Virus record (IMG/VR): IMGVR_UViG_3300011187_000003 | Span: 23,726-87,725 of that record | Direction: 5' to 3' (one strand) | Source of the DNA: a virus | DNA: 64,000 nucleotides | In this document: one piece after another, positions 14,963 through 28,102 of the stretch | Layout: each line of letters opens with the position of its first letter | Position numbering within the stretch: position 1 is the stretch's first letter | Notes under the pieces: generated by a model | Seen by the model: only the letters and a program-made list of their open reading frames with translations | Told to the model about the DNA's origin: nothing | Databases searched by the model: none | Made by a program: the position numbers and the translations under genes

Positions 14963-15344
14963 ACACAGTCTTGTAGCTTACCCCCTCTTCAATATCTTTT
15001 AAGCAATCACCATCTGATTTATATATTTGACCTATTGAGTGATATTGGTGTTTGTCCTTGCTAGATTGCATATAGATTGTCCAAAAACGACCTGTATATT
15101 GCCCCTTAACTTCAGACTCTAATACATAACTTTTTTCATCTTCACCCCAATTGATGAGCTTGTACACCTTGCCATCAATAGTTTTTGTGTTATCATATCC
15201 CCCCATATAGAAGTCAGGGTCATCAATGATATCTACCTCTGCTATCACATACTTAGGCTGTTCACCTTCAAAATGGAAGTCCCTCTTGTAATCACTAATG
15301 TCAGCATCCTTAACATAATCAAACAGGTTATCAAATAATTTCAT
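14946..15344 (-). CDS. Hypothetical protein
   Basis: AGGAGGT RBS. Confidence 0.65.
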   Translation of the reverse strand: MKLFDNLFDYVKDADISDYKRDFHFEGEQPKYVIAEVDIIDDPDFYMGGYDNTKTIDGKVYKLINWGEDEKSYVLESEVKGQYTGRFWTIYMQSSKDKHQYHSIGQIYKSDGDCLKDIEEGVSYKTVYGYEG

Positions 15345-15396
15345 TTTATTACCTCCTAAGTTTTTTTGGTCACTCTGCTTTTAGACTGTTGCTGTT

Positions 15397-15882
15397 TTAG
15401 ATATGGAGAATATTCTTTCTGAGCAAGAAGTTAACTGCACCTCTTACACTATCAAAGTCAACTTCTTTTTTCTTTTCTCCATTTACATACTTATTATAAT
15501 ACACTTTGTCACTACCTACAATTTTTACCTCAAGTACTTTGTCATGCCCCCTGTTGTCATTATACTCAAACCTATACTGCTTATTGTTCATCAGCTCCTC
15601 CATTATTTGTTTTGCTTTAATCTTTTGATACTGACTCTTATAGTCACTGAGCTGTCCATACTCCATATGAGTAGTGAAGTCCCTCATCTTATCTATGTCA
15701 TCATCATCCCACATCCTGTTGCCACCATCAGTCCACTTAGGCTCAGGAACTAGCCTGCCCATACCAACCTCTTTACCTTTTCTACTTAATACATCCCATT
15801 TATGAACAGTCAGTTTAGTAACACCTACAAGCTCTGCTGTTTCATTTATAGTATAATACCTTCTACCATCTATTACTTTCAT
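15397..15882 (-). CDS. MerR-type HTH DNA-binding protein
   Basis: YYTINETAELVGVTKLTVHKWD…P..TDGGNRMW…DI. Confidence 0.7.
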   Translation of the reverse strand: MKVIDGRRYYTINETAELVGVTKLTVHKWDVLSRKGKEVGMGRLVPEPKWTDGGNRMWDDDDIDKMRDFTTHMEYGQLSDYKSQYQKIKAKQIMEELMNNKQYRFEYNDNRGHDKVLEVKIVGSDKVYYNKYVNGEKKKEVDFDSVRGAVNFLLRKNILHI

Positions 15883-15985
15883 TATTTATTACCTCCCTTT
15901 CATTCTACTTGTTATAATAACATATCCAGTATAATATGTCAACCTTTAATTTGGATTAATTACCTCTGTTATTAGAGTGTTGCTG

Positions 15986-16618
15986 TTAAGCAAAATCAAG
16001 GTTATTAAATAGCTTTTGTGCTTGCTCCATTGATATCATATCACCAGCATGCTCCATTAGGCCATTGCTTTCAAACTCATTGCCATAAAAACCAAAGCAG
16101 GAGTCAATTAACTCCTTTTCTGTATGTCCACAATGCTCACAGGCCTCTTTTTTAAAGAGTTCAAACCCATATACTTTACCCTGAAGGTAATTGTTATAAG
16201 TTTTAACTTCTCCTTTTAACATTTTTCTAGTAAGCTCCAAAGTATCCTCTGTTATTTCATCTGTCATAAACCATTCTTTAATATCTTCATAAGTAGCATA
16301 GATAAACCCAATCTCTCCTGAATCCCACTCAGCATGATGTGCTCTGCCTACAAATGATTTAGTATCCATTGCTAGCTGGGAATGGTCATAGAGGTATAGA
16401 GGCAGAATAACAGCTTTCTCAGGCTCTTCTACCTGATGTTCTATTTCCCCTTGCCAACTACCTTCTTTACCTGTAGCCTGTGCATCCCCTAAGTCATATC
16501 TTTTATGCTCACACACCATTGTTCCTAAGTTATCCCACTCTCTAGGGGTTTTAGCATGCTCATCATTATATATCTCCAGCATTAAATCCTCTGTCTTTGC
16601 TTTATATACTTTTCTCAT
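15986..16618 (-). CDS. Conserved-looking acidic phage early protein
   Basis: PREWDNLGTM, LPLYLYDHS, WDSG.IGF, DSCFGFYG motifs; GAGGAGG RBS. Confidence 0.7.
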   Translation of the reverse strand: MRKVYKAKTEDLMLEIYNDEHAKTPREWDNLGTMVCEHKRYDLGDAQATGKEGSWQGEIEHQVEEPEKAVILPLYLYDHSQLAMDTKSFVGRAHHAEWDSGEIGFIYATYEDIKEWFMTDEITEDTLELTRKMLKGEVKTYNNYLQGKVYGFELFKKEACEHCGHTEKELIDSCFGFYGNEFESNGLMEHAGDMISMEQAQKLFNNLDFA

Positions 16619-16641
16619 TATTTATAACCTCCTCAAGGTTT

Positions 16642-16713
16642 TTAATTCCAGTAACTGCTTTCACCTGACAACAAAGCTGATATCAGGTACATTATATCAT
16701 ATAAATTTTGCAT
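16642..16713 (-). CDS. Possible 23-aa mini-ORF with hairpin-sequestered RBS
   Basis: GAGGGGCTGATATCAG-ATG…; MQNLYDIMYLISALLSGESSYWN*. Confidence 0.3.
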   Translation of the reverse strand: MQNLYDIMYLISALLSGESSYWN

Positions 16714-16735
16714 CTGATATCAGCCCCTCTCTGTT

Positions 16736-17221
16736 TTACTCTTCTTCTTTATCATGCCATTGAAGGCCTCTTGCTTCATAAAGTGGTGTCCAGTGATGGG
16801 AATAAAAGTCATAATCAGCACCATCAATACCAAAGTATAGAGTGCCTGTTTCAATAAATTCATATACCCTGAACCCACACTGCTTCATGATATCAATGTT
16901 TTCTCTAGCCCATTCCTCATCGAACCCTGAACCAAATGTCCACAGCGTACCCCACATAGGGAGGAATGAATCAGGCTCATCATAAAGGTCATCAATGTCA
17001 ACCTCAACCTCCCCTTCTACTATTGCCTTATCTCCACTAACCTCCATTACTTCAACCTTGCGCTGAAGCTCATTGCTCCAAACATAATCTCCTTCTACAA
17101 TAACACTTCTAGTTAACTCATAAAATGAATCAATATTATTTTTAAGCACACTCTCAATCAAACTGTATTCTACTGCATCAAACCCATTTGCCCACTCTCT
17201 AACTGCATCTTTTTTATCCAA
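16736..17221 (-). CDS. Hypothetical protein (TTG start)
   Basis: PMWGTLW and FGIDGADYDFY..HW motifs; promoter and RBS. Confidence 0.7.
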   Translation of the reverse strand: MDKKDAVREWANGFDAVEYSLIESVLKNNIDSFYELTRSVIVEGDYVWSNELQRKVEVMEVSGDKAIVEGEVEVDIDDLYDEPDSFLPMWGTLWTFGSGFDEEWARENIDIMKQCGFRVYEFIETGTLYFGIDGADYDFYSHHWTPLYEARGLQWHDKEEE

Positions 17222-17300
17222 AGTTATAACCTCCTCAAGGTTAATGTCTTATTAACTTCACTATAATTATTATAACATAATCACTATACCATGTCAAACA

Positions 17301-17645
17301 TTAATTAACATGTTTTTGATATGATTCTTCAGGAATAAAAATCTTTCTTGCTAAGATAACATCCTGATTAGTAGGCTTCCTTCTATCTCCAGCCACATAG
17401 CACTCAACAATAACTCTGTCCTTCTCTGTCCTGAAGTTATCTAAGTAGTCCTCAGTCTGCTCTTTAGTAGGCAGTACATGGATGCCTGTTACATAGTATC
17501 TATCATTACCACCATCTCTACCCCACCTAATCTCTGCCTCATACCATCTATTAGGGAGCAGTGTTCTGTTCCTGTTAATCCCCTTAAATAAATTTTTAAG
17601 TTTATCATCTTTCCTTAACATTATTTTATATGCTTTTTGAATCAT
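17301..17645 (-). CDS. Hypothetical protein
   Basis: GAGGAGGT RBS; preceded by a long structured leader. Confidence 0.65.
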   Translation of the reverse strand: MIQKAYKIMLRKDDKLKNLFKGINRNRTLLPNRWYEAEIRWGRDGGNDRYYVTGIHVLPTKEQTEDYLDNFRTEKDRVIVECYVAGDRRKPTNQDVILARKIFIPEESYQKHVN

Positions 17646-17654
17646 ATGTATTTA

Positions 17655-17778
17655 CCTCCTCTGTCGTATTTGAAGGCCACACTGTTAGGAGCTTATAACC
17701 CCTAACAGTAAGGAGCTGACACATCTATATAGCAAGGAGCTGATTTCTCACTACTTTGTGGCCTTATTACCTTCACTA
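17655..17778 (-). ncRNA. Structured leader/sRNA with repeated anti-RBS motif (TC)AGCTCCT
   Basis: Promoter 17784-17812; 9-bp closing stem AAGGCCACA/TGTGGCCTT; motifs at 17734-17744, 17710-17719, 17687-17693. Confidence 0.55.
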
Positions 17779-17840
17779 ATTATATTGTATCAAGCATGGT
17801 ATAGTTTGTCAAGTCATATATGGAATTTATTAAAATTATT

Positions 17841-18248
17841 TTATTCTCTTCTCTCAAACTGTAACCTGAAGTCACCTTCAAAGATAAACATAATATACAC
17901 ATCATCATTATTGATGTTTAAGTTTTCATTTAAGTATTCACTTGCTACATCTACAAGTCTATTGCTCCAGTAAATGTGCTCTTCAAGCTGTTCATGATAT
18001 CTATCCTCATCCACTTTAAACCCAAACATCTCTAAGGCCTCTTTGACTAAGTACTGCCCTGCTCTGTCAGGCACTAGTATATCAATAACACCTACTTTTC
18101 TATCATCAATATCAGGGTAGATTTCCAAATCATTTTCTGCTCTGTTATTTACTTCTTCTTCAACACTTTCCCAATAAAAATTATCATCTAAGTGATTCTT
18201 TACCTGCTTGTCAAACTCTTCCTTAGTTAACTCTGTTACATCTGTCAT
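17841..18248 (-). CDS. Acidic hypothetical protein
   Basis: Promoter and GAGGAGG RBS. Confidence 0.65.
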   Translation of the reverse strand: MTDVTELTKEEFDKQVKNHLDDNFYWESVEEEVNNRAENDLEIYPDIDDRKVGVIDILVPDRAGQYLVKEALEMFGFKVDEDRYHEQLEEHIYWSNRLVDVASEYLNENLNINNDDVYIMFIFEGDFRLQFERRE

Positions 18249-18331
18249 ATTATTTTTACCTCCTCAATTTTTTATCTTCACTATTAATAGTATAACAAAT
18301 ACATAACATGTTGTCAAGTAATATATCAAAT

Positions 18332-18460
18332 TTATTCCAAAAACAACAATGGAATCCAGCACACCACAACAACAATAAAGAATGTTAAGCTGTCTGTCAT
18401 TGACAAGCTTGTCAGTCCACCTATAGCAAGCAATAAGAACATGTTAATGTAATAAGTCAT
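18332..18460 (-). CDS. Small membrane protein (42 aa)
   Basis: GGAGGGGG RBS; two hydrophobic stretches. Confidence 0.5.
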   Translation of the reverse strand: MTYYINMFLLLAIGGLTSLSMTDSLTFFIVVVVCWIPLLFLE

Positions 18461-18549
18461 GTAATCCCCCTCCTTCGATAGAGGCCACTCTCAGGCCTCT
18501 TAGAAGCTTTGATAATATCTCTCTCCTTCATGTACTCTACATCTAGTTT

Positions 18550-18789
18550 TTATCCCCAATACGCTTTGACATAATCTTTAAACACCTTATTTGCATCTTT
18601 CCTTGTTGTAACTTTAGTCTTATACTTGCTAATCTCTGCAATAGCCTCTTTGCTCTCATTATCCTCATAAACCCTTATCTCAGCCACCGTCAATGAGTTT
18701 TCTTCTTCATATATTTGATATACTTCCTCAACCTCTATGTCAGTATTGTTTAATAAGTGTTGGCGTACAATCTCTGTTAATCTTTGCAT
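18550..18789 (-). CDS. Hypothetical protein
   Basis: AGGAGGT RBS. Confidence 0.6.
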   Translation of the reverse strand: MQRLTEIVRQHLLNNTDIEVEEVYQIYEEENSLTVAEIRVYEDNESKEAIAEISKYKTKVTTRKDANKVFKDYVKAYWG

Positions 18790-18795
18790 ATTTTA

Positions 18796-19014
18796 TTACC
18801 TCCTATAGTTTTCCTTTTGAAGATTTGGGTAAAAAGGTTTAGCTTTATTGAATGTTAGCTTGTCCCCATGAGTTTTAACAAACTCATCTGAGCCAACACC
18901 CATGTAAACTGCCTTCATACCAAATGCATCCTGAGTTAATACAAACTTAATTATACCTCTATCCTCAGTCCCTTTAGGTGCTAGTGGGCTGTCACTATCA
19001 ATAACTTTATTCAT
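18796..19014 (-). CDS. Hypothetical protein
   Basis: Promoter and AAGGAGGT before MNKVIDS. Confidence 0.6.
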   Translation of the reverse strand: MNKVIDSDSPLAPKGTEDRGIIKFVLTQDAFGMKAVYMGVGSDEFVKTHGDKLTFNKAKPFYPNLQKENYRR

Positions 19015-19092
19015 ATTTATTACCTCCTTAATTGATTCTAAACTTAGTATAACACAACCAGTACATGTTGTCAAACAATATATCAAATTATT

Positions 19093-19806
19093 TTAAAAAT
19101 ACAAGTGACTGTAAAACTCTATCTCATGCTTGTTACCTTCAACATCTACAAACCATACCTGTTCACTCCCAACATCTATTTCTATTTCCTCACCTTCAAA
19201 ATCAAACTCAACATCTCCACCACCACGAAAATTATAACCTGCATTTTCTGAACAAGCAGTGCCTACTCCATCTATATTAGCACTAACATCCCTAAGACCC
19301 ATTAAGAAGTAGTCAAATGCAGGGAGCTTAAAGATAACAGGCTTAGTATACCCTCCACGAATGTCGCATCCATTGTGGATGGACAAGATGATATACTCTG
19401 CATCATAGAAATCATCATCATATGGTATAACAAACTGTATATTTTGGTCAAGTACACATTCTTGATTATAAGTATTGCGCACTAACTTATTATCTGCCAG
19501 CTGGTCAGCAAATGTCTCCATATCTGCTAAGTATGAATCCTCTGAATGTTCCATATACTGCTCAAACTTTTTGTTCATTTTTTCAGCATCCTCATCAAAC
19601 TCTAGCATGTTGGTCAGGTAATGATAGACAGGTACATGAAATAGTAACTCATCCTCAAAGTAATCTATCTTTATCTCAGGCTCATCCTCAAAGTCTTTAC
19701 CTTGATTCTCCTCCCAATGTCTACCATATACACTGCCTGAATCTAAAAAGTGACTGCCTGTGTTTTTTGTTAGCATATCCTTTACAGTATCCTTAATATC
19801 CATCAT
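19093..19806 (-). CDS. Conserved-looking acidic phage early protein
   Basis: MLT.NTG.HFLDSG..YGR.W and IH.G.DIRGGYT.P motifs. Confidence 0.7.
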   Translation of the reverse strand: MMDIKDTVKDMLTKNTGSHFLDSGSVYGRHWEENQGKDFEDEPEIKIDYFEDELLFHVPVYHYLTNMLEFDEDAEKMNKKFEQYMEHSEDSYLADMETFADQLADNKLVRNTYNQECVLDQNIQFVIPYDDDFYDAEYIILSIHNGCDIRGGYTKPVIFKLPAFDYFLMGLRDVSANIDGVGTACSENAGYNFRGGGDVEFDFEGEEIEIDVGSEQVWFVDVEGNKHEIEFYSHLYF

Positions 19807-19922
19807 AATTTTTACCTCCTAATTTTTTTGGTCAACTTAACTTCACTAATAATAGTATAACAGTTATGTAATATCATGTCAAGGGTAAATTCAAATTTAT
19901 TTTACCCTTGACAAAATCTTTG

Positions 19923-20576
19923 TTAGAGCAGGCTGTTTAAGTAATCACCTAAACCTATTTCTTGAATCTTATTATTGCGCTCAAAATCAATCTCATAGTT
20001 ATTGAGCTGTTCAGGCTCATTTGCTTCAGATTCTAACCAATTCTCCATTACTTGTTTTTGGTGATAGCCTCTACCTTTCTCCAGCTTTTCTCTAATCTTT
20101 TTTCTAATTTTTTCTCTTGCAGATGGATAATTATCAACGACACAATCTGTTAATACATCACCTTTATTATCCCTTGCAATGTAGCGCTTATATTTATCAG
20201 GCTTTAGCTGGCCAGCATCAACTATCTTATAGAGCCTATCATCATGTACAACTACATTAAAACGCTGTTTAGTCTGCAGGTAATTAAGTAAAGTCATATC
20301 ATTGCAATCATCATAGCTTTGAAACTCATCATCAATAGATGCTTCTGCAATTTTATTAACTGCAAAGTTTAATCTTTTAACATCCCTGTACTCACCACGC
20401 TCTAAGCTATAGCTCCAGCCATACCAATTATCACTATTGTTACCACTCTGTAAAGTAATCTTGCCTGCATTTCTGTATTCCCCATCAAGTCCTTCCTTCA
20501 CATACAGTAAAATACTAACACTCTGAAAACTGCCCTCATTTCTAACATCAGTAACTCTTAACCCTACATATTTCAT
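19923..20576 (-). CDS. Hypothetical protein
   Basis: Promoter and GAGGAGGT RBS. Confidence 0.65.
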   Translation of the reverse strand: MKYVGLRVTDVRNEGSFQSVSILLYVKEGLDGEYRNAGKITLQSGNNSDNWYGWSYSLERGEYRDVKRLNFAVNKIAEASIDDEFQSYDDCNDMTLLNYLQTKQRFNVVVHDDRLYKIVDAGQLKPDKYKRYIARDNKGDVLTDCVVDNYPSAREKIRKKIREKLEKGRGYHQKQVMENWLESEANEPEQLNNYEIDFERNNKIQEIGLGDYLNSLL

Positions 20577-20789
20577 ATAATTATTACCTCCTCAAAATTT
20601 TGTGTTTTAACTTCACTAATTAATATGATAACACAACTAATATACTATGTCAAGAAAAAATTAAAATTAATCTGTAATTAAAATATAGTCATCCTTAATT
20701 ATTACCTCCTAATTTTTTGTGCCTTTCAACCTCACTACAATTAGTATAACATAATCATTATAGTATGTCAAGAAAAAAATAGAATTAAT

Positions 20790-20876
20790 TTATAAAGGTA
20801 CTTGCGCCAGCTACAGAACAAGTACCTCTACATTATTTTATATCAATTAAAGGAGCTGATGCTTCAATTGATTACT
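20790..20876 (-). ncRNA. Candidate ~90-nt trans-acting anti-Shine-Dalgarno sRNA
   Basis: Promoter TTGACA(20911-20906)-17-TATACT; 5' hairpin AUCAAUUGAAG-[CAUCAGCUC]-CUUUAAUUGAU; 3' hairpin AGGUACUUG…CAAGUACCU-UUAU; no RBS on the transcribed strand. Confidence 0.65.
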
Positions 20877-20924
20877 AATAATAGTATAGCAAACTTAATA
20901 ACACATGTCAATGATTAATTATAA

Positions 20925-21110
20925 ATTATTACTATTACTATTGTTATTATTATTATTAAGTATATTATTAATAAGGTTATTAGAAGTATTATTAAGTATA
21001 TTGTTATTAATGTTATTAAGTATATTATTAATAAGGTTATTAGAAGTATTATTAAGTATATATTATTTATTACTATTGTTATTATTATTATTAAGTATAT
21101 TGTTAATACT
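20925..21110. repeat. AT-rich low-complexity tract with a near-perfect 60-bp tandem duplication
   Basis: 20941-21000 vs 21001-21060 differ at 2 positions; TTATTAAGTATA subrepeat. Confidence 0.9.
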
Positions 21111-21387
21111 TTTTTGTTACTATTTTTATTATCTTATTAGGAATATGTTTTAGGAATCTTATTAGTAGTTCTTAACTTCAAGTACAAGTTCAAATTCTAT
21201 TAATTAAAGCAAGTTAAAACTTAGTTTTGTTAGTGGTAAAATATAAATTAATTAAATTAAAAGTATTCTGATAATTATAACCCTAGCTGGCAGGTCTTGA
21301 ATTTAAAAGCTCTGTCGTATTTCAGTAGTTTTCTGTTAAAATAAAAAAGAGCGTCGTATTTCAGAGGTTCGCTGTTATAAATATGTA

Positions 21388-21440
21388 ACGCGCACATACA
21401 CACACACGCGCAGGCGCGCACACACGCACACACACGCGCG
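21388..21440. repeat. Alternating purine-pyrimidine (CA/CG) tract, Z-DNA prone
   Basis: ACGCGCACATACACACACACGCGCAGGCGCGCACACACGCACACACACGCGCG. Confidence 0.9.
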
Positions 21441-21469
21441 ATTATATCACAAATCACATTGAATGTCAA
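21441..21469 (-). promoter_or_regulatory. Consensus sigma-A promoter firing into the RY tract
   Basis: TTGACA-17-TATAAT with extended TG. Confidence 0.75.
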
Positions 21470-21503
21470 GTAATATATCAAATTCTTTATATTTTTAATT
21501 GTT

Positions 21504-21545
21504 TGAATTGTGTACACAATTCACCTGTGGATAACTTTATCCACA
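21504..21545. promoter_or_regulatory. Perfect 20-bp palindrome followed by an inverted pair of DnaA boxes
   Basis: TGAATTGTGTACACAATTCA at 21504-21523; TGTGGATAA 21526-21534 and TTATCCACA 21537-21545. Confidence 0.75.
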
Positions 21546-21899
21546 AACTATACCAAACTACTAAAGATTAATTATATAATCAGATCAAAGTTATAGCTAC
21601 TCCACATAAAAATCTATATTTTACAGAATCTACCATTTTGGTATAAATTACCAAAGCAGGTAGTCTTTTAAGATATACTATAATCTTACAAAAATCAGGC
21701 TCCTTTTTTTAACATAGAAGTCCCAAGAAAAAGATGGCCATATTTAATTATCAATGTTCAAATCTTCAAGGTTCAATAATACAATAACACAAAAAAATAA
21801 TATCGTCAAATTTAACTTTTCCCTTGACAAAGTATATCAAGGCTGATATAGTATTAAGTAGTAAGACAGAAAAACAAAAAATTAAAGGAGCTGAGGCAA

Positions 21900-22175
21900 A
21901 TGTTAGATATTAAAATTTCAGGACATGCAAGCAGTCAGGCCAGCGACAGACATTTAAAAAAGCAGTCATTATTAAATATTATATTAGAGCTTAAGCAGGC
22001 AGATTTTAACGAATTTATAAATTCTAAATATATATATGCTTGCTTAAGAGACAGGCAGAAAAAAGAGTCTGTAGTTATTGCAGTTAATAACTCTACAATT
22101 ACTATTGTAACAGTAATTAACAAAGTTATGCGCTGTAATAACTACCCTGATACGATAATAATAAATGTTAAATAA
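21900..22175 (+). CDS. DUF4258/RelE-like small protein
   Basis: ISGHA..QA.DR and ITIVTVI; AAAGGAGCTGA RBS. Confidence 0.55.
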   Translation: MLDIKISGHASSQASDRHLKKQSLLNIILELKQADFNEFINSKYIYACLRDRQKKESVVIAVNNSTITIVTVINKVMRCNNYPDTIIINVK

Positions 22176-22299
22176 AATTTGACAAAGTATAATGAATCTG
22201 ATAACATGTTAAATAGTGAAGATGAAAAACATTAAATATTAGCTTGCTCAAAGGCCTGAGAAGGCCTGAGAAGCAGGCTAAAAAAAGGAGCTGATATTA

Positions 22300-22548
22300 A
22301 TGGATAAAAAATTAAAAGATGTTGAGAAGCTGGCAGATGTTGAAGAGGCAGGCACTAAAGTAGTAAGTAATTGTTTTAGTATCACAGCAATTGTTGATGG
22401 TTTAACAGAATCAGTTTTTTATCAGTATAATGGAGCTTTAACAGGTGATATCAAAAAAGCTAAAATTAAATATAATTCATTTACTGGAGCGCCTTATTTT
22501 ATAGATGATAGACAAATAAAACATGAATTATGTAAATTTATTAGCTAA
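22300..22548 (+). CDS. Hypothetical protein
   Basis: AAAGGAGCTGAT RBS. Confidence 0.65.
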   Translation: MDKKLKDVEKLADVEEAGTKVVSNCFSITAIVDGLTESVFYQYNGALTGDIKKAKIKYNSFTGAPYFIDDRQIKHELCKFIS

Positions 22549-22566
22549 AAAAAGGAGCTGATATTA

Positions 22567-22641
22567 ATGAATAAAAAGAAGCGCTTGCAGATTGATTTTA
22601 TTGCAGAGGATGCAGAAAATTTATTAAATAATTCTAATTAA
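22567..22641 (+). CDS. 24-aa mini-ORF
   Basis: Same AAAGGAGCTGATATTAATG start context as 22300. Confidence 0.4.
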   Translation: MNKKKRLQIDFIAEDAENLLNNSN

Positions 22642-22720
22642 TTCTTGACAAAGTATAATAGAGCTGATATAGTATTAAGTAGTAAGACAGAAAAACAAAA
22701 AATTAAAGGAGCTGGTTAAG

Positions 22721-23050
22721 ATGATTATTACTTTTAACATTCCAAAGCAGGACAACGACAAGAATAAATTTGACGACAGCAAGCTACAAGGTTATATCAA
22801 GCAGGTATGTAAAGTGACTGGTGGCACTACCACCTATCAGGCCAAAGGTCAGTATATAATGGAATCTGGCAAGATGACAAGCGATAATAATTATATGGTT
22901 AAAACAAGCACTGATTCAAGGCAGGACTTGCAAGAAGTTAAAAGAATAATTGCAGGCATGGCCAAAGATTTAAGTCAAGAATCAATCTATTTTGAAGTGC
23001 AGCAGGCAGATGTTGAGTTTATAACTGCTGACATGAATCAGGCAGTATAG
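22721..23050 (+). CDS. Ferredoxin/PII-like small protein (DUF3574/phage SAM-lyase-like pattern)
   Basis: GG.T…A.G.Y…and L.QESIYFE motifs; promoter and RBS. Confidence 0.45.
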   Translation: MIITFNIPKQDNDKNKFDDSKLQGYIKQVCKVTGGTTTYQAKGQYIMESGKMTSDNNYMVKTSTDSRQDLQEVKRIIAGMAKDLSQESIYFEVQQADVEFITADMNQAV

Positions 23051-23184
23051 TCAGATCAAAAAACAGGCCTTGTAAAAGAGGCCTGATAAAAAATAATTCT
23101 AATTATTATTTGACAAAGTTTAATGCATCTGATATAGTGTTAAGTAGTGAAGATGAAAACAAAAAATTAAAGGAGATGATAATT

Positions 23185-23463
23185 ATGAAAACAAACGACA
23201 AAAAAATTGAATCTATTGAAGGCCTGCAGGATGCAATTAAGGACTTGAAGAATCAGGACATTTATTTGATTGAAAATGTGGAGCTTGAAGCAGGCGACAT
23301 CTATCAAGTTTTAAAAGATGTTGACATTGCAGATCAAAGATATATGGAGACTTTAAAAGATACAGTAGAGTTTTACGCAAGACCTGAATGGGACAGAGAT
23401 AAAAAAATTTATCCTGCAATCTGGATTAATCCAACATCTGAAAAGTTAGTATTTGAGTATTAA
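23185..23463 (+). CDS. Hypothetical protein
   Basis: Promoter and AAAGGAGATGAT RBS before MKTNDK. Confidence 0.65.
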   Translation: MKTNDKKIESIEGLQDAIKDLKNQDIYLIENVELEAGDIYQVLKDVDIADQRYMETLKDTVEFYARPEWDRDKKIYPAIWINPTSEKLVFEY

Positions 23464-23613
23464 AGGTTAAAAAATATCAGGTCTGCAAAAATCAGGCCTG
23501 ATAAAAATAAAATAAAATTTAAAATAATTCTTGATATTACTTGACAAAGTATAATAAACTTGTTATACTATAGATAGTGAAGATGAAAACAACACAAAAA
23601 AAGGAGCTGGTTT

Positions 23614-23880
23614 TTGATGATTAAAAGAAAAGAATTAATTAAACTTGTTGAGGAGAATAAAAGAGAAAAAAGACAAGAAAAGTGGATGATAATAGAGAAG
23701 TGCGAAGCACTTACAGAAAAGAGAAAAAGAGGCAATTTAATAGCTGAAAGTATCATTGAAATTCTAAAGCAAGGTAATGACTTTTATGCGAGTGAAGTTA
23801 ATAACTCAAAAAATAATTTGAGATTCGTTTTGAATATATTGGATAACAAAGATTATATAATTGATATTGACAAAAAATAA
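23614..23880 (+). CDS. Hypothetical protein
   Basis: Promoter and AAGGAGCTG RBS. Confidence 0.6.
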   Translation: MMIKRKELIKLVEENKREKRQEKWMIIEKCEALTEKRKRGNLIAESIIEILKQGNDFYASEVNNSKNNLRFVLNILDNKDYIIDIDKK

Positions 23881-23953
23881 TTATAATTATCAGGCCTTGT
23901 AAAAGAGGCCTGATAATTATTAAATAACTTAGATCAAAACCAATTAGGAGCTG

Positions 23954-24235
23954 ATGCAAATGGAGAAAAAAATTAAAAAGATGCAAGAATTTTTTGAAGG
24001 CAGAGAAGTTAAGGTAACAGGCTGGAGTGAAGACACCACTAAAGAGATGGTGATGGAAGTAGAGAACAATAAAGAAACGATAACTTTAAAAGATTCTAAC
24101 AGTCAAATTTTTTTATTAGTTAGCAAAAAAGCACTTGACAGAATTGATATTTTAGAACACTTAAGAGAAGGCAAAAAAGCAAGCATTCTAATCTATGGTG
24201 ATGGTATCACAGTTTATGTTCAAACAATAAAATAA
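23954..24235 (+). CDS. Hypothetical protein
   Basis: AGGAGCTG RBS. Confidence 0.6.
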   Translation: MQMEKKIKKMQEFFEGREVKVTGWSEDTTKEMVMEVENNKETITLKDSNSQIFLLVSKKALDRIDILEHLREGKKASILIYGDGITVYVQTIK

Positions 24236-24323
24236 TCAAATAGCAAGGCCTGAAAAAAAGGCCTTGCTTCTATCTTAAAGAATCAGATCAAAGTTAATAA
24301 GTTAAAATAATATTAGTCAATTC

Positions 24324-24353
24324 GCTTCAAGCTTAAGAGCTTGGAGCTTTTTT
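24324..24353 (+). terminator. Rho-independent terminator
   Basis: GCTTCAAGCT-TAAG-AGCTTGGAGC-TTTTTT. Confidence 0.7.
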
Positions 24354-24900
24354 GTATTTATACCATGTAACTATATTATTAAAAGCTATATAGAAGCGCT
24401 AAGAAGCTCATTAAGCACTTTTAAGCGAATCATGGTATTATGAGGCCTTGAATAAATAAAAGGCCTTAAATAACTATTTAAATCTTTATAAGGTGCTATA
24501 TAATTATAATATACATATTATATCAATAATAGCATACTATCATATATTAGAACCTTATAAGAGGCCATGAGAAGCGCTTTAAATAGCTTGCAGTTATATA
24601 TACATATTAATAGGCCTGCAGTAACTAAAAGCTTTATATGGAGCTTTTAGCGCTTTTTGAGACCTGCAGCACTATTAAGTATAGTACTACTAAAACTATT
24701 TGAATTAATTTAATATATAGCTTGACAAAGTATAACTAAAGCCTTATAATGGTACATAGTGAGACAGGGAAGAAAAAAGAGTGCTGGCAAAACTTTTTAA
24801 AAAATATCAAATAAAGCTTGACAAAGTATAACAAACTTGTTATTATGTTAAGTAGTGAGGGACACAAAAGAACAACAAATTTTAAAAGGAGATGATAATT

Positions 24901-25047
24901 ATGTTTTATGTTGGATGGGAAGAATTGAAGAGCTGGAAACCAGAGCTAACAGAGAAAGAAGCAAAGAAGCAAGCAAGGCAGATTGACAAAGATTGCGTAG
25001 AGCTGGAAAGAGAATTAAGAGAATCAGGAGAATACGAAAACTTATAA
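24901..25047 (+). CDS. Small charged protein (48 aa)
   Basis: Promoter 24818, AAGGAGATG RBS, MFYVGWEELKSW…. Confidence 0.55.
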   Translation: MFYVGWEELKSWKPELTEKEAKKQARQIDKDCVELERELRESGEYENL

Positions 25048-25112
25048 GAATCAAAGGCCTTGTGATAGCAAGCAAGGCCACAATATAAAAAATTAAAAGG
25101 AGCTGATAGAAG

Positions 25113-25385
25113 ATGAATAATATTGATAAAATAGCAAAGTTTTTTGAGGAAAGAGAAGGCAAAGAATTTATAGAATTAGGATATAATCAAGGTAAAAGAT
25201 TAATAGATTTTAGCTTTAAATTAGATAAAATTAATCGTAAAAGAGAAACAAGAATAAAATTAATATTAAATAATAATGAGCCACAAAGGTTTGTAGAATC
25301 AAATATTAAAGAACTATATAGTGGTGATTATTTGCTAAAAATTGAGCTTATAAATGGTCTGATTCTTAGAATTATTAAAAAATAA
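25113..25385 (+). CDS. Hypothetical protein, N-terminus similar to 23954 gene
   Basis: KI..FFE.RE shared with 23954; AAAGGAGCTGAT RBS. Confidence 0.6.
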   Translation: MNNIDKIAKFFEEREGKEFIELGYNQGKRLIDFSFKLDKINRKRETRIKLILNNNEPQRFVESNIKELYSGDYLLKIELINGLILRIIKK

Positions 25386-25401
25386 AACTAAAAAGCCTGA
25401 G

Positions 25402-25507
25402 TTATCCACAAGCTCAGGTTTAAGTTATCCACATTTGAGAGAGAGTTATCCACAATATTAAGTTAGTTATCCACAGGAAAGAGAGAATTATCCACAAGTT
25501 ATCCACA
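25402..25507 (+). repeat. Six co-oriented consensus DnaA boxes (TTATCCACA)
   Basis: Starts 25402, 25425, 25446, 25467, 25488, 25499; AT-rich tract follows. Confidence 0.9.
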
Positions 25508-25624
25508 AAACAAATGATAAATTATAAATAAATGATAAATAATAAAATTTATATGAATTAAAAAACGAATTTCAACACTCCCCTGTTACTATAAAATTTT
25601 TTTCTGATTCTGGCCTGATTGTTT

Positions 25625-25652
25625 TTGTCGTATAATACAGATTATAAGACAA
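25625..25652. other. dif-like Xer recombination site 1
   Basis: TTGTCGTATAA-TACAGA-TTATAAGACAA (11-6-11). Confidence 0.55.
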
Positions 25653-25989
25653 AACATCCACGAAGCCTGCCATGACAGGAATGGTGAGGGGTGTCGATTC
25701 AAGATAGAAAACCAAAAAAAAGAAATAGAAGGAAGAATAGGTTTTTGCACTCCCCTACCAACTCCTCTAATATCTATCCCTATAAGACTCTAGATACCAA
25801 CGACTCTAATTTGGCACCCTATACCTTTTTAATTAGTTAACTTTAATATTTGCCCCTATTGAGTCCTAATCACTAACCTCTCTAAGGTATATCCCTACCC
25901 CAACCTATATTAGGGGGTGTCAAATAATGCTTGACATATAATATTATATTATGTATAATAATAATAGAAAATTAAAGGAGGTATTGATA

Positions 25990-26403
25990 ATGAAAGATGT
26001 AGAGTATATTTATAATTACTTTAAGGAACTGTCACCAATATGTTTACCTAACACCACATATATTGTAAAATACAATACTATCTTACATGAAGCTAAAAAA
26101 GCAAAACTCATTGAGATTAAAGAAAACTGCCTTGCTAAGTGGTTACCTAAGAATGGTAGAGATATTGACTTTTATGATGATAATATTATTACTTTCAGCT
26201 CCTTTTACGCCTTTGGGTACTTAACCTATACATATCATAACTACGACCATGTTGATGATTTAATCTTATCAGGATTTGAACAAGGGGACTTTGATAATTA
26301 TAAGATTTATGATAAACAATCAAACAGCAGTAATGCTAGTTCAGCTGGAGATATGAGAGAACAATGTACTTGGGAAACTTTCTCAACCCCACAACCATTT
26401 TAA
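25990..26403 (+). CDS. Hypothetical protein
   Basis: Consensus promoter 25931-25959, AAGGAGGT RBS. Confidence 0.6.
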   Translation: MKDVEYIYNYFKELSPICLPNTTYIVKYNTILHEAKKAKLIEIKENCLAKWLPKNGRDIDFYDDNIITFSSFYAFGYLTYTYHNYDHVDDLILSGFEQGDFDNYKIYDKQSNSSNASSAGDMREQCTWETFSTPQPF

Positions 26404-26493
26404 AAATCAGATAAGGGGGGTGGAAATAATTTAAGATTTTAGTTACAATTTTTCACTCGCATGTGTATAATAATAATGAAGGAGGTGATAGCA

Positions 26494-26655
26494 ATGCTGT
26501 TCCTAAGAGGTATCTCAGTTGGAATAATGATTGGGGTTATAATCTACAAACTCTTTGACCAAGATAGTAGAGAATTTGAGGAAGAAATATATGAGAATGG
26601 CTACAGTGATGGTTATGAAGATGGTTACTATAAGAGTGACTATAAATACTCATGA
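26494..26655 (+). CDS. Small membrane-anchored protein
   Basis: TM helix plus GY.DGY repeats; AGGAGGTG RBS. Confidence 0.55.
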   Translation: MLFLRGISVGIMIGVIIYKLFDQDSREFEEEIYENGYSDGYEDGYYKSDYKYS

Positions 26656-26668
26656 GGAGGTGATAGCA

Positions 26669-26992
26669 ATGAATGAAGTTGAAGAGGTTCTTAAAGATGG
26701 TAGGAACAATATTAATGATAAGTTTCTTGACACCAAACAAGTTAATATTATCAACCAAGAAGCCTTAAATACAGGTGATTGTATCAAAGTTAGAATTAAC
26801 TCTAATGATGGTGAGGTTAGAAATGTTATTGTACGATATACTGATGAAGAGGGAGTCCATTGTATAGACCTAAACTCAAGGAGGGACAGTAAAACATTCG
26901 CTATTCTTGCTAAATACTTGGCTAATGGCAATGTTGAAATATTAGATATAATGAGGGAAGGGGGGAACAGTAGATGGATAAAGAAGGAGTAA
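26669..26992 (+). CDS. Hypothetical protein
   Basis: AGGAGGTGATAGCAATG start context. Confidence 0.6.
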   Translation: MNEVEEVLKDGRNNINDKFLDTKQVNIINQEALNTGDCIKVRINSNDGEVRNVIVRYTDEEGVHCIDLNSRRDSKTFAILAKYLANGNVEILDIMREGGNSRWIKKE

Positions 26993-27162
26993 TCCAAGTA
27001 CTAGAAGCTTTTATTTTAGAGATTGAGAATGATGAGATTGAGGTTTCTAAGATTGAGAAGCAAGATACTGAAAAGTACAAAGAGAGCTTTAGTGGTACAG
27101 AGACCTTTCATAATAAGAAATTTATATTTGAGATGAAAGGGTCTTACAACCTAGAAGAATAA
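26974..27162 (+). CDS. Hypothetical protein
   Basis: Coupled ORF with G-rich RBS. Confidence 0.55.
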   Translation: MDKEGVIQVLEAFILEIENDEIEVSKIEKQDTEKYKESFSGTETFHNKKFIFEMKGSYNLEE

Positions 27163-27242
27163 AAAAAAAATCAAATTATCTCTTGACAAAAGGTGTTATA
27201 GTATGTATAATTATAATTGCAATGTGAAAGGGGAGATAAAAA

Positions 27243-27517
27243 ATGTTTGAAGAACTTGATAAGATAATTGAGGAAGCCAAAACTGTGGCTTTGAAATTGA
27301 TGAAGTATCTAGGATTACTCGTAAAAACAGCAGACTATCCAATAAGCCACAGGTTAGCATGATATATGTAACTAAAGAGATTCAGGATAAATATGAGGAA
27401 AAGAAACAAGAAGCAAAAGAGAAATACAAGCACATTAAGAAAAGTATAGAGGATAGCTTAAAACCCCCTAAAACAAACGCTATTCTCCATCATTATGACC
27501 TAGCTGGAGACAAGTAA
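27243..27517 (+). pseudogene. Frameshifted small gene (one A missing near 27280, or assembly error)
   Basis: MFEELDKIIEEAK continues as NCGFEIDEV… in the -1 frame; promoter 27183 and RBS. Confidence 0.45.
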
Positions 27518-27528
27518 GGAGGGTTAAT

Positions 27529-27645
27529 ATGTTTGCAGTATTTATTACAATTTATTTATTAATACTAAGTATGTTTCTTGGGATTCCTCCAATTTTTATC
27601 CTGTTTTTAATATTATTAATTGTTCTTATCCCACCATTAAGTTAG
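27529..27645 (+). CDS. Small hydrophobic protein (38 aa)
   Basis: AGGAGGG RBS; wholly hydrophobic. Confidence 0.45.
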   Translation: MFAVFITIYLLILSMFLGIPPIFILFLILLIVLIPPLS

Positions 27646-27652
27646 AGTATTT

Positions 27653-27690
27653 GGTTGAAAAATATCGCTATTATGTGTATAATAATAATA
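27653..27690 (+). promoter_or_regulatory. Second (middle-type) promoter class GGTTGAAA-17-TATAAT-AATA
   Basis: Same pattern at 32759 (+), 1215-1245 (-), 7417-7447 (-); variant at 13313-13343 (-). Confidence 0.7.
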
Positions 27691-27722
27691 GAGAGTGATA
27701 AATAATAATTAACATTTAAGGA

Positions 27723-27956
27723 GTGATAACTTTGCCAATAACAACTTCTAGTAGGAGAGTGTACTTTACAGAAGAAGCTACAGATAAAGAAGCAAAAGAT
27801 ATTAAAGATATGTTTGATGATGAAGGCTACCTTTTAGAAAGTGACTTAGATGACCCAGCTAGGTATATTGTAGTTAGAGGGGCTCAAAGAGAGTTATTAA
27901 AACTAGATTTGATTTCACCAACTCTTAGTAAGATTAAAGTAGTTAAACCACTATAA
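27723..27956 (+). CDS. Hypothetical protein
   Basis: AAGGAG RBS (true start may be TTG a few codons in). Confidence 0.55.
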   Translation: MITLPITTSSRRVYFTEEATDKEAKDIKDMFDDEGYLLESDLDDPARYIVVRGAQRELLKLDLISPTLSKIKVVKPL

Positions 27957-27965
27957 AGGAGGCTA

Positions 27966-28102
27966 ATGATGTATAAGAAGATATGCCCTGAATGTGATAG
28001 TGCATCTTATAGCAGTGGCAAAAAGGTGAATGGATTTGTCCTTATTGTGATGAAGATATAGGTGATATAGAAGTTGAAAGAACAAAAGAGGATGGTGATT
28101 AA
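27966..28102 (+). pseudogene. Zinc-ribbon mini-gene broken in an A-run at about 28020
   Basis: CPEC and WICPYC halves lie in different frames across GGCAAAAAGG. Confidence 0.55.

Follow-up and report, generated by a model that had tools for sequence, protein, structure and literature searches.

A short folded RNA that carries no gene, read leftward from a near-consensus promoter of an uncultured phage, is a candidate trans-acting anti-Shine-Dalgarno (anti-SD) RNA. This is our preferred explanation, which we put forward tentatively. In the proposed mechanism, a host-type early promoter (P1) would drive leftward transcription of the short, gene-less folded RNA. Its loop CAUCAGCUC, extending by strand invasion into CUUUAAUUG, would pair with the extended SD variant AAAGGAGCUGAU(G/A). 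The targets would be seven of the nine small rightward early genes at 21.9-25.4 kb, together with an actin-like gene in another part of the genome. Base-pairing would mask the SD sequence and exclude 30S subunits, and genes with AGGAGGU or GGAGUGAU would escape. Because hairpins are predicted at both of its ends, the RNA may outlive the mRNAs and accumulate. The outcome would be that translation of the first-expressed genes is shut off as a class and with a delay, and two 10-mer copies in a leader at 17.7 kb may join the same pool.

The analyzed window of 64,000 nucleotides runs from base 23726 to base 87725 of an IMG/VR virus record that is 87,725 bp long and has a direct terminal repeat of 123 bp. 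The DNA runs in which this phage occurs are lake-water and salt-lake metagenomes, and RNA runs make up none of the 24 runs listed. A megablast search against 50,697 phage records gave no match, and the best identity of the large terminase is 27.7%, to Bacillus phage Stahl; judged by these comparisons, the phage is novel. Among its gene products are a DNA polymerase, a DnaB-like helicase and a RecJ-like nuclease. Transcription is laid out divergently from about 21 kb, with genes of the minus strand on the left and those of the plus strand on the right. Arrays of small genes open both arms, and a near-consensus sigma-70-type promoter precedes most of these genes. The promoter scan of 17000-27000 returned 17 sites scoring at least 11/12, and the terminator scan of the region returned eight sites.

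Promoter P1 and the predicted RNA

The preliminary description of this locus had reported a near-consensus leftward promoter that is followed by neither an AGGAGG ribosome-binding site (RBS) nor a gene, and both parts of that statement were borne out. Repeat family D2 unites P1 and six more leftward promoters (60% identity). Those six have AGGAGGT and an ORF downstream, unlike P1, for which no AGGAGG was found downstream and no minus-strand ORF of at least 30 aa between 20577 and 21274. The features of the locus are as follows.

20883 to 20911, minus strand: promoter P1 (TTGACA, 17 nt, TATACT, extended -10 TG), 11/12 in the promoter scan
20790 to 20876, minus strand: predicted non-coding RNA of about 87 nt, from its fold, no ORF and no Rfam match; 3' end uncertain
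20842 to 20872, minus strand: predicted hairpin 1, an 11-bp stem (one G-U pair) that displays the seed; -8.3 kcal/mol alone
20844 to 20861, minus strand: putative seed CAUCAGCUCCUUUAAUUG, with the loop at 20853-20861 and the remainder as 3' arm
20791 to 20832, minus strand: predicted hairpin 2, a possible weak terminator, then UUAUAAAUUAAUU; -20.4 kcal/mol alone

Transcription would start 7 nt past the -10 hexamer, at 20876. Folding of 20877-20770 (108 nt) gave a minimum free energy of -29 kcal/mol (z -4.51), and none of 200 shuffled sequences was as stable. This fold recovers the 11-bp 5' stem, the AU-rich linker joining the two hairpins and the 3' hairpin that had been described. The loop of hairpin 1 has 9 nt and an opening cost of 0.56 kcal/mol; together with the 3' arm it forms the reverse complement of CAATTAAAGGAGCTGATG. 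The anti-RBS sequence is thus carried by loop and 3' arm as first reported, but only CAUCAGCUC is presented in the loop, and CUUUAAUUG lies outside it as the paired 3' arm. Partial invasion of the weak, AU-rich stem of hairpin 1 is predicted to cost 4-9 kcal/mol.

The 3' part of the RNA is less well defined. The 9-bp core ascribed to hairpin 2 is present, but the folding program draws it with extensions as 15 pairs. In hairpin 2 the loop is large and the U tract is interrupted, and this hairpin is missing from the eight sites of the terminator scan. The short U run described earlier is a poor one. Because the terminator is doubtful, a discrete RNA of about 90 nt is not assured, and transcription may read through into the next cassette. 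The gap from the hairpin 2 region to the next promoter is only 19 nt. Behind that promoter (P2, 20771) stands an 'empty' cassette, consisting of a perfect RBS and MTIF-stop, an ORF of 4 codons. In a 317-nt read-through transcript, the predicted opening cost of the hairpin 1 loop is unchanged. A cmscan search of 15000-28000 against Rfam (E up to 1) returned only an unrelated sub-threshold match at 25051-25104.

Ribosome-binding sites of the rightward block and predicted pairing

Seven of the nine genes of the rightward block use AAAGGAGCTGAT, and the other genes use AGGAGGT. The block sites, with their match to the RNA and the net predicted pairing energy where given, are listed below.

21880 to 21894, plus strand: RBS of gene 21900-22175, 15-nt match, -15.2 kcal/mol
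22284 to 22295, plus strand: RBS of gene 22300-22548, 12-nt match, -10.3 kcal/mol
22551 to 22562, plus strand: RBS of the 24-codon ORF at 22567, 12-nt match, -7.3 kcal/mol
22701 to 22714, plus strand: RBS of gene 22721-23050, 14-nt match, -11.9 kcal/mol
23165 to 23180, plus strand: RBS of gene 23185-23463, GGAGATGAT variant with one mismatch, -7.2 kcal/mol
23600 to 23609, plus strand: RBS of gene 23614/23617-23880, 10-nt match, -9.7 kcal/mol
23946 to 23956, plus strand: RBS of gene 23954-24235, 11-nt match overlapping an ATG, -16.2 kcal/mol
24885 to 24896, plus strand: RBS of gene 24901-25047, GGAGATGAT variant with one mismatch, repeat families D6 and D8
25096 to 25107, plus strand: RBS of gene 25113-25385, 12-nt match, -12.0 kcal/mol

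Complementarity to the RNA is perfect over 10-15 nt at seven of these nine early-gene RBSs and has one mismatch at the other two. All of the matches first claimed (15, 14, 12, 12, 12, 11 and 10 nt, plus single mismatches at 23165 and 24885) were therefore reproduced. In all nine cases the RBS lies 9-10 nt from the start codon. The recurrence of the site is not random: AAGGAGCTGA has eight copies in the window against 0.16 expected, and none of 100 shuffles reached eight. Compared over the whole 87.7-kb record, GGAGCTG precedes seven of the nine genes at 21.9-25.4 kb, and AGGAGGT has 19 minus-strand copies, 14 of them ahead of left-arm starts. From 25969 on, AGGAGGT or GGAGTGAT is again the site of right-arm genes. 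The identity between the RNA and the target units ends at 18 nt (17/18 against 21880) with unrelated flanks (D16); since the homology is limited to this length, the candidate RNA is not a long duplicated segment.

Predicted pairing was scored for 115 start regions (-45 to +20), comprising 114 genes called by a simple SD-based rule and the 24-codon ORF at 22567. All 7-22-nt stretches of the RNA's 5' part served as windows, and the score was the best total obtained by adding the cost of opening both RNAs to the duplex energy. A ranking by whole-RNA duplexes was dropped in favor of this windowed version, as it gave long, loop-ridden duplexes with opening costs of up to 30 kcal/mol. The top seven of the 115 start regions have GGAGCUG in every case, with scores between -16.2 and -9.7 kcal/mol, compared with a median of -3.0. 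The third best (-15.1 kcal/mol) belongs to the actin-like gene, which lies beyond the window (G000:C1:11046-12077, minus strand). No left-arm start of the AGGAGGT type is among the best 25 of the 115, in agreement with the original expectation that the leftward AGGAGGT genes pair poorly. As a model result, this energy ranking largely repeats the complementarity; what it adds is the openness of the loop and the cost of stem invasion.

A second antisense site was found in the left arm.

17646 to 17778, minus strand: leader of gene 17645-17301, after the promoter at 17812-17784, with two copies of UCAGCUCCUU

These copies, at 17743-17734 and 17719-17710 on the minus strand, are AAGGAGCTGA at 17710 and 17734 when read on the plus strand. 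Both lie 34-67 nt past the promoter in a non-coding leader of about 130 nt, and no start codon follows either copy at RBS distance. Their flanks are unlike each other and unlike those of the RBS units. As a control, repeated extended-RBS 9-mers were collected from other phage loci, where they are common (38 rows); non-RBS copies of such 9-mers number 0-1 in 37 of the 38 rows. The predicted opening costs of the leader motifs are 4.97 (first) and 2.15 kcal/mol, with a median of 3.51 for the 10-nt windows of the leader. The structure of the leader is not unusual overall (z -1.71), and a closing stem around the motifs is seen in the centroid structure. The modelled exposure of the motifs is only partly confirmed.

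The block site differs by one base from the long form AGGAGGTGAT, which the phage uses at 26480 and 26655 (D17) and which we take to be complementary to the entire 16S rRNA tail. Being one base off this form, the tagged sites should still bind ribosomes via AAAGGAG and UGAU, and the RNA seed would resemble a 16S tail carrying the matching single change. A more far-reaching idea, which we regard as speculative and rather unlikely, is that this one-base SD variant (GGAGCUGAU, against GGAGGUGAU at 26480 and 26655) tags the first genes. RNAs that mimic the 16S tail with the matching change would then outcompete the ribosome at those sites only. Such a natural 'orthogonal' SD/anti-SD pair would act as a translational timer, with a left-arm sRNA and an mRNA leader silencing the right arm. 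P1 and its proposed targets share a promoter class, so the sequence itself gives no temporal logic, a point against the preferred reading.

The stoichiometry is also worth recording: one RNA gene and two leader copies would face nine strongly promoted targets, which likewise speaks against the preferred anti-SD reading.

Other phages, strains and rival explanations

Close relatives of the locus were sought in several ways. Megablast of 19800-22600 against the phage collection returned nothing, the exact 24-nt hairpin string had no match in viral contigs, and no relatives of the 217-aa neighbor protein were found. A DNA polymerase search recovered one identical fragment (L002), which ends short of the RNA locus. 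From the 237-aa neighbor, 80 loci in viruses and 80 in metagenomes were reached, with identities of 46% at most, and a GGAGCTG RBS block was present in none of them. The 83 stretches returned by a dual-motif scan were mostly repeats within coding sequence. Among them, a family with a tandem repeat of 24 nt between genes resembled the locus but was rejected, as it has no GGAGCTG RBS partner and its other copies are coding.

An unrelated phage record of 98 kb (G001), reached through a gapped pattern scan, has 49% G+C in the stretch examined, no DNA-polymerase match and only a marginal terminase match. RGGAGCTGA has ten forward matches in this record, of which nine are AGGAGCTGA in an early-type promoter array; eight sites scored as RBSs of ORFs of at least 30 codons. 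On the reverse strand (98 kb, in a record 57% complete) there were no copies, and the two controls gave one each. The variant is thus used there without an antisense copy, and the tag is not private to this gene block, contrary to what had been claimed. Judging from these sequences, the RBS variant clearly has its own reasons to exist. Since the record is 57% complete, a partner RNA may be missing from it. If the idea of an orthogonal pair were right, the tag in an unrelated phage would mean that the address is reused across phages. As for the class-wide shut-off proposed at the outset, the open loop and the selective predicted pairing stand; the 'private' tag does not, and the terminator is doubtful.

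Strains of the phage were compared through contigs of four metagenome runs, for the differences and pieces listed. One contig of the near-identical strain X2 covers 17000-20915 with three differences (18924, 18993 and 20391), none of them in the RNA. At the first target of the same strain, AAATTAAAGG is replaced by TTTAAAAAGG, whereby the AATT flank is lost and the match shrinks from 15 to 11 nt. As the flank has changed with the RNA unchanged, the outer pairing seems unconstrained, and the part demonstrably conserved in X2 is the core alone, the RBS itself. Contigs of runs X5, X6 and X12 match the window to 20714 and then diverge from it. In the bin 20804-21120, X5 has no cover and X6 and X12 have little, which has no bearing either way. 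Cassette-sized skips between strains were seen from 22276 to 22544, 17823 to 18329, 19019 to 19812 and 23096 to 23936, with their ends within repeated RBS, promoter or terminator sequences. Strain contigs also have a 480-letter insertion at 17646/17659. Repeated promoter and stem-loop flanks surround small ORFs (families D2, D3, D9 and D15).

Because strain indels fall at repeated cassettes, an orphan promoter beside a scrap of RBS is a serious rival, even if on balance we consider it unlikely. The locus would then be a by-product of cassette shuffling, in which a leftward promoter and a rightward-type RBS fragment were joined by illegitimate or repeat-mediated recombination, and the RNA would have no regulatory role. 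The many cassette-sized indels ending in repeats fit this well, as do the empty P2 cassette that adjoins the locus and the 24-codon remnant after the RBS at 22551. T4-type phages swap genes via comparable promoter/stem-loop cassettes (PMC2839356, PMC4122927). However, the homology to the rightward units spans just the 18 nt of D16 without flanking similarity, and chance fails to account for an 11-bp stem that places the anti-RBS in a loop or for a second strong hairpin (z -4.51). Nor does shuffling explain why another leader contains two further antisense 10-mers whose flanks differ. An accident should carry flanking homology, and it leaves the stem and loop placement and the two extra antisense copies unexplained; for these reasons the anti-SD RNA is ranked first.

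The remaining alternatives appear less probable. The weak terminator and the location of the other two copies, certainly within an mRNA leader, would suit a leader element rather than a free sRNA. Transcription from P1 would then pass through hairpin 2 into P2/P3 and lead to mRNA-mRNA cross-talk with right-arm messages, or to weak cis pairing with the left arm's AGGAGGU sites. The loop is equally open (0.56 kcal/mol) in the 317-nt transcript, in keeping with this version. We consider it improbable, given that hairpin 2 is very stable (-20.4 kcal/mol) and followed by a U-rich stretch, that a promoter only 19 nt on suits a separate unit, and that AGGAGGU pairing is poor, with no left-arm start of that type in the best 25. 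Seven plus-strand copies of AAGGAGCTGA lie about 17-70 nt downstream of listed promoters in either arm, and a site read by a protein would account for this spacing. The reader could be a DNA-binding regulator near the early promoters of both arms or an RNA-binding factor like RegB or RegA, and the minus-strand RNA would be irrelevant. T4 RegB reads GGAG with a 3' extension in early start regions (PMC3014915), and in G001 the tag occurs with no antisense copy. An RNA-binder would, however, need plus-strand transcripts from the left arm, where the best plus-strand promoter scores 9/12, and a protein reader gives no role to the hairpin context and the 18-nt extension of the match. In addition, none of ten scanned proteins (those of the nine named ORFs read rightward between 21900 and 26403, plus a 114-aa leftward protein) rose above threshold for a nuclease or repressor family; gene 21900-22175 had a sub-threshold DUF4258 match (19.6 bits, cut-off 25). 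Altogether, a protein reader seems quite improbable. The least probable reading by far is that the plus-strand sequence is a working RBS, either of the 19-codon ORF from ATG 20859 or of 16 codons from TTG 20868. It fits the block RBS consensus and an open frame follows, but the distance from GGAG is only 3 nt to the ATG and 12 nt to the TTG, instead of the 9-10 nt seen in the nine block genes, and the AAAG of the site would be buried in a stem. No good plus-strand promoter was found upstream. The preliminary description had pointed to this ORF as a possible user of a stray RBS; the spacing and the missing promoter disfavor it.

Comparison with known systems

Returning to the anti-SD RNA, its anatomy as read from the sequence is clear, and its interpretation is built on one genome. 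One of the closest likenesses is the c4 RNA of phages P1 and P7, which is processed from its target's own operon transcript and controls the icd-ant operon for immunity. Loops of c4 pair around the RBS of a phage mRNA and block translation (PMC12197685). To that extent, both would be small structured phage RNAs with a loop complementary to the RBS of an mRNA encoded elsewhere. The predicted RNA differs from c4 in having a promoter of its own, in being encoded in the opposite arm and in addressing seven to nine separately transcribed genes, and the locus had no match to the Rfam C4 covariance model.

C-rich-loop sRNAs of Firmicutes, such as RsaE/RoxS and RNAIII, form a further group for comparison. 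The LhrC sRNAs of Listeria have a hairpin with loop A and a terminator hairpin, and a CU-rich motif in loop A pairs with AG-rich SD sequences and blocks translation without Hfq (PMC8079631). The candidate shares with LhrC an arrangement of two stem-loops and several predicted SD targets. LhrC is a host stress regulator with short UCCC motifs and flexible flanks, whereas the phage RNA would be a 9-18-nt exact mirror of one SD variant, directed at the phage's own genes in a lytic-type phage. No UCCC motif is present in the candidate RNA, and Rfam indicated no relation to LhrC or RsaE-type sRNAs.

Cuckoo RNAs of Alphaproteobacteria (CcsR/alpha-r14) consist of 2-4 adjacent hairpins, each displaying CCUCCUCCC (PMC4615179). 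A repeated anti-SD-like motif is the common element, with three copies in the phage. The motif and the host group are different, and cuckoo RNAs are chromosomal, whereas the phage copies are spread across two transcription units. The PeSL cassettes of T4-type phages are also similar, in that small early ORFs are flanked by near-identical promoters and hairpins with strain indels at those places (PMC2839356, PMC4122927). This likeness concerns the neighborhood rather than the RNA, and the present phage is not T4-like.

Strong sites of T4 RegB share GG*AGRAYARAA (PMC3014915). There too, a phage function inactivates a temporal mRNA class through the GGAG of the SD sequence and a 3' extension; in T4 the reading is done by a protein nuclease with the aid of S1, while the proposed reader is an RNA and cleavage is not implied. 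From these comparisons of sequence and structure, the candidate RNA is outside the c4, LhrC, cuckoo and RegB families. A limited literature search, which is not proof of absence, found no lytic-phage RNA that addresses a gene class via an RBS variant. Should the preferred reading hold, early shut-off in this phage would be RNA-based and class-specific, addressed by an RBS variant and not gene by gene, so that a whole gene set would be timed by one 90-nt RNA. It would also offer an orthogonal RBS/repressor pair for Gram-positive synthetic biology. Set beside the known systems, it would be the RNA equivalent of T4 RegB and a relative of c4 with a simpler layout.

The tagged ribosome-binding site within and beyond this phage

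Outside the tagged block, the nine small rightward early genes at 21.9-25.4 kb, the ribosome-binding site (RBS) GGAGCTGATG was found only ahead of an actin-like gene, which also ranks among the top three predicted targets of the candidate anti-SD RNA driven by the leftward promoter P1:

G000:C1:11046-12077 (coordinates of the whole record; outside the window), minus strand: gene for an actin-like protein encoded by the phage (Pfam ALP_N, 1.2e-17; MreB-like_C, 3.2e-12)

Across the whole record, many middle and late genes carry GGAGTGAT as their RBS, that is, the long SD minus its fifth base, and the RBSs of this phage therefore form a series, GGAG[G/C/A/none]TGAT.

An array of approximately 20 small genes was also observed in an unrelated 98-kb phage record (G001:C1:76000-95000, locus L290). 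Each of these genes has TTGACA / TGnTATAAT and the common leader ACATCAAAAGCA. Nine of them carry AGGAGCTGA as their RBS, and the others mostly AGGAGGA. No reverse-strand copy of AGGAGCTGA is present in this 98-kb record, which is 57% complete. Besides, a family of phage contigs with ~38-40% G+C contains two to three tandem 24-nt intergenic repeats:

L303 6980-7053, also in L368, L316, L362, L295, L326, L367 and L343: tandem 24-nt repeats containing UCAGCUCCUUUAAU

The UCAGCUCCUUUAAU of these repeats is the same 14-mer as in the seed of the P1 RNA. The repeats adjoin, on its upstream side, a gene with a canonical RBS, and the GGAGCTG-type RBS was not found in four records of this family.

Promoters without genes and possible origin features

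Left of the divergence lies an 'empty' cassette (20680-20771, minus strand), in which promoter P2 (TTGACA-17-TATACT), together with a perfect AGGAGGT RBS, drives nothing but the ORF ATG-ACT-ATA-TTT-TAA. Strain contigs from three lake or salt-lake metagenome runs (X5, X6 and X12) match the window as far as 20714 and diverge beyond it. Another leftward promoter (21469-21441, minus strand; 12/12 consensus) has no gene downstream within 21270-21469. The first ~50 nt of its transcript would be alternating CG/TG (21389-21437), which is odd for a region of 30% G+C, followed by two CTGAAATACGAC repeats, the second of which shares the 13-mer AAATACGACAGAG with the leader at 17.7 kb (17646..17778, minus strand). 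Such an RNA may belong to an origin or an R-loop, or may represent a further non-coding RNA.

The stretch 20918-21120, which separates P1 from the rightward block, is AT-rich, with 12-bp periodic repeats in 10 copies of a 60-nt register, and may act in an origin as an unwinding or bending element. DnaA-box consensus sequences lie at both ends of the tagged block:

25423-25497: four copies of the DnaA-box consensus TTATCCACA, with 21-bp spacing
21521-21545: inverted pair of the same consensus at the opposite end of the block

The right arm and cassette shuffling between strains

Gene 21900-22175, with which the tagged block opens, has a sub-threshold match to DUF4258 (E 0.0011; 19.6 bits vs a cut-off of 25). 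Gene 25951-26403 contains, in its coding sequence at 26170-26207, a 38-nt stretch that reads UCAGCUCCUUUU in the plus-strand mRNA. Its complementarity to the RBS and start codon region of gene 25113 is 71% (repeat family I5), and for 19 nt of it the complementarity to two further RBSs, at 22283 and 22550, is 89%; these matches may be due to chance.

Within 17000-26500, strains in four lake metagenome runs are separated by cassette-sized insertions and deletions, with promoter, RBS and AGGCCT-hairpin repeats at their boundaries. Such modular shuffling is similar to that of PeSL cassettes in T4-type phages, although the present phage is not T4-like.
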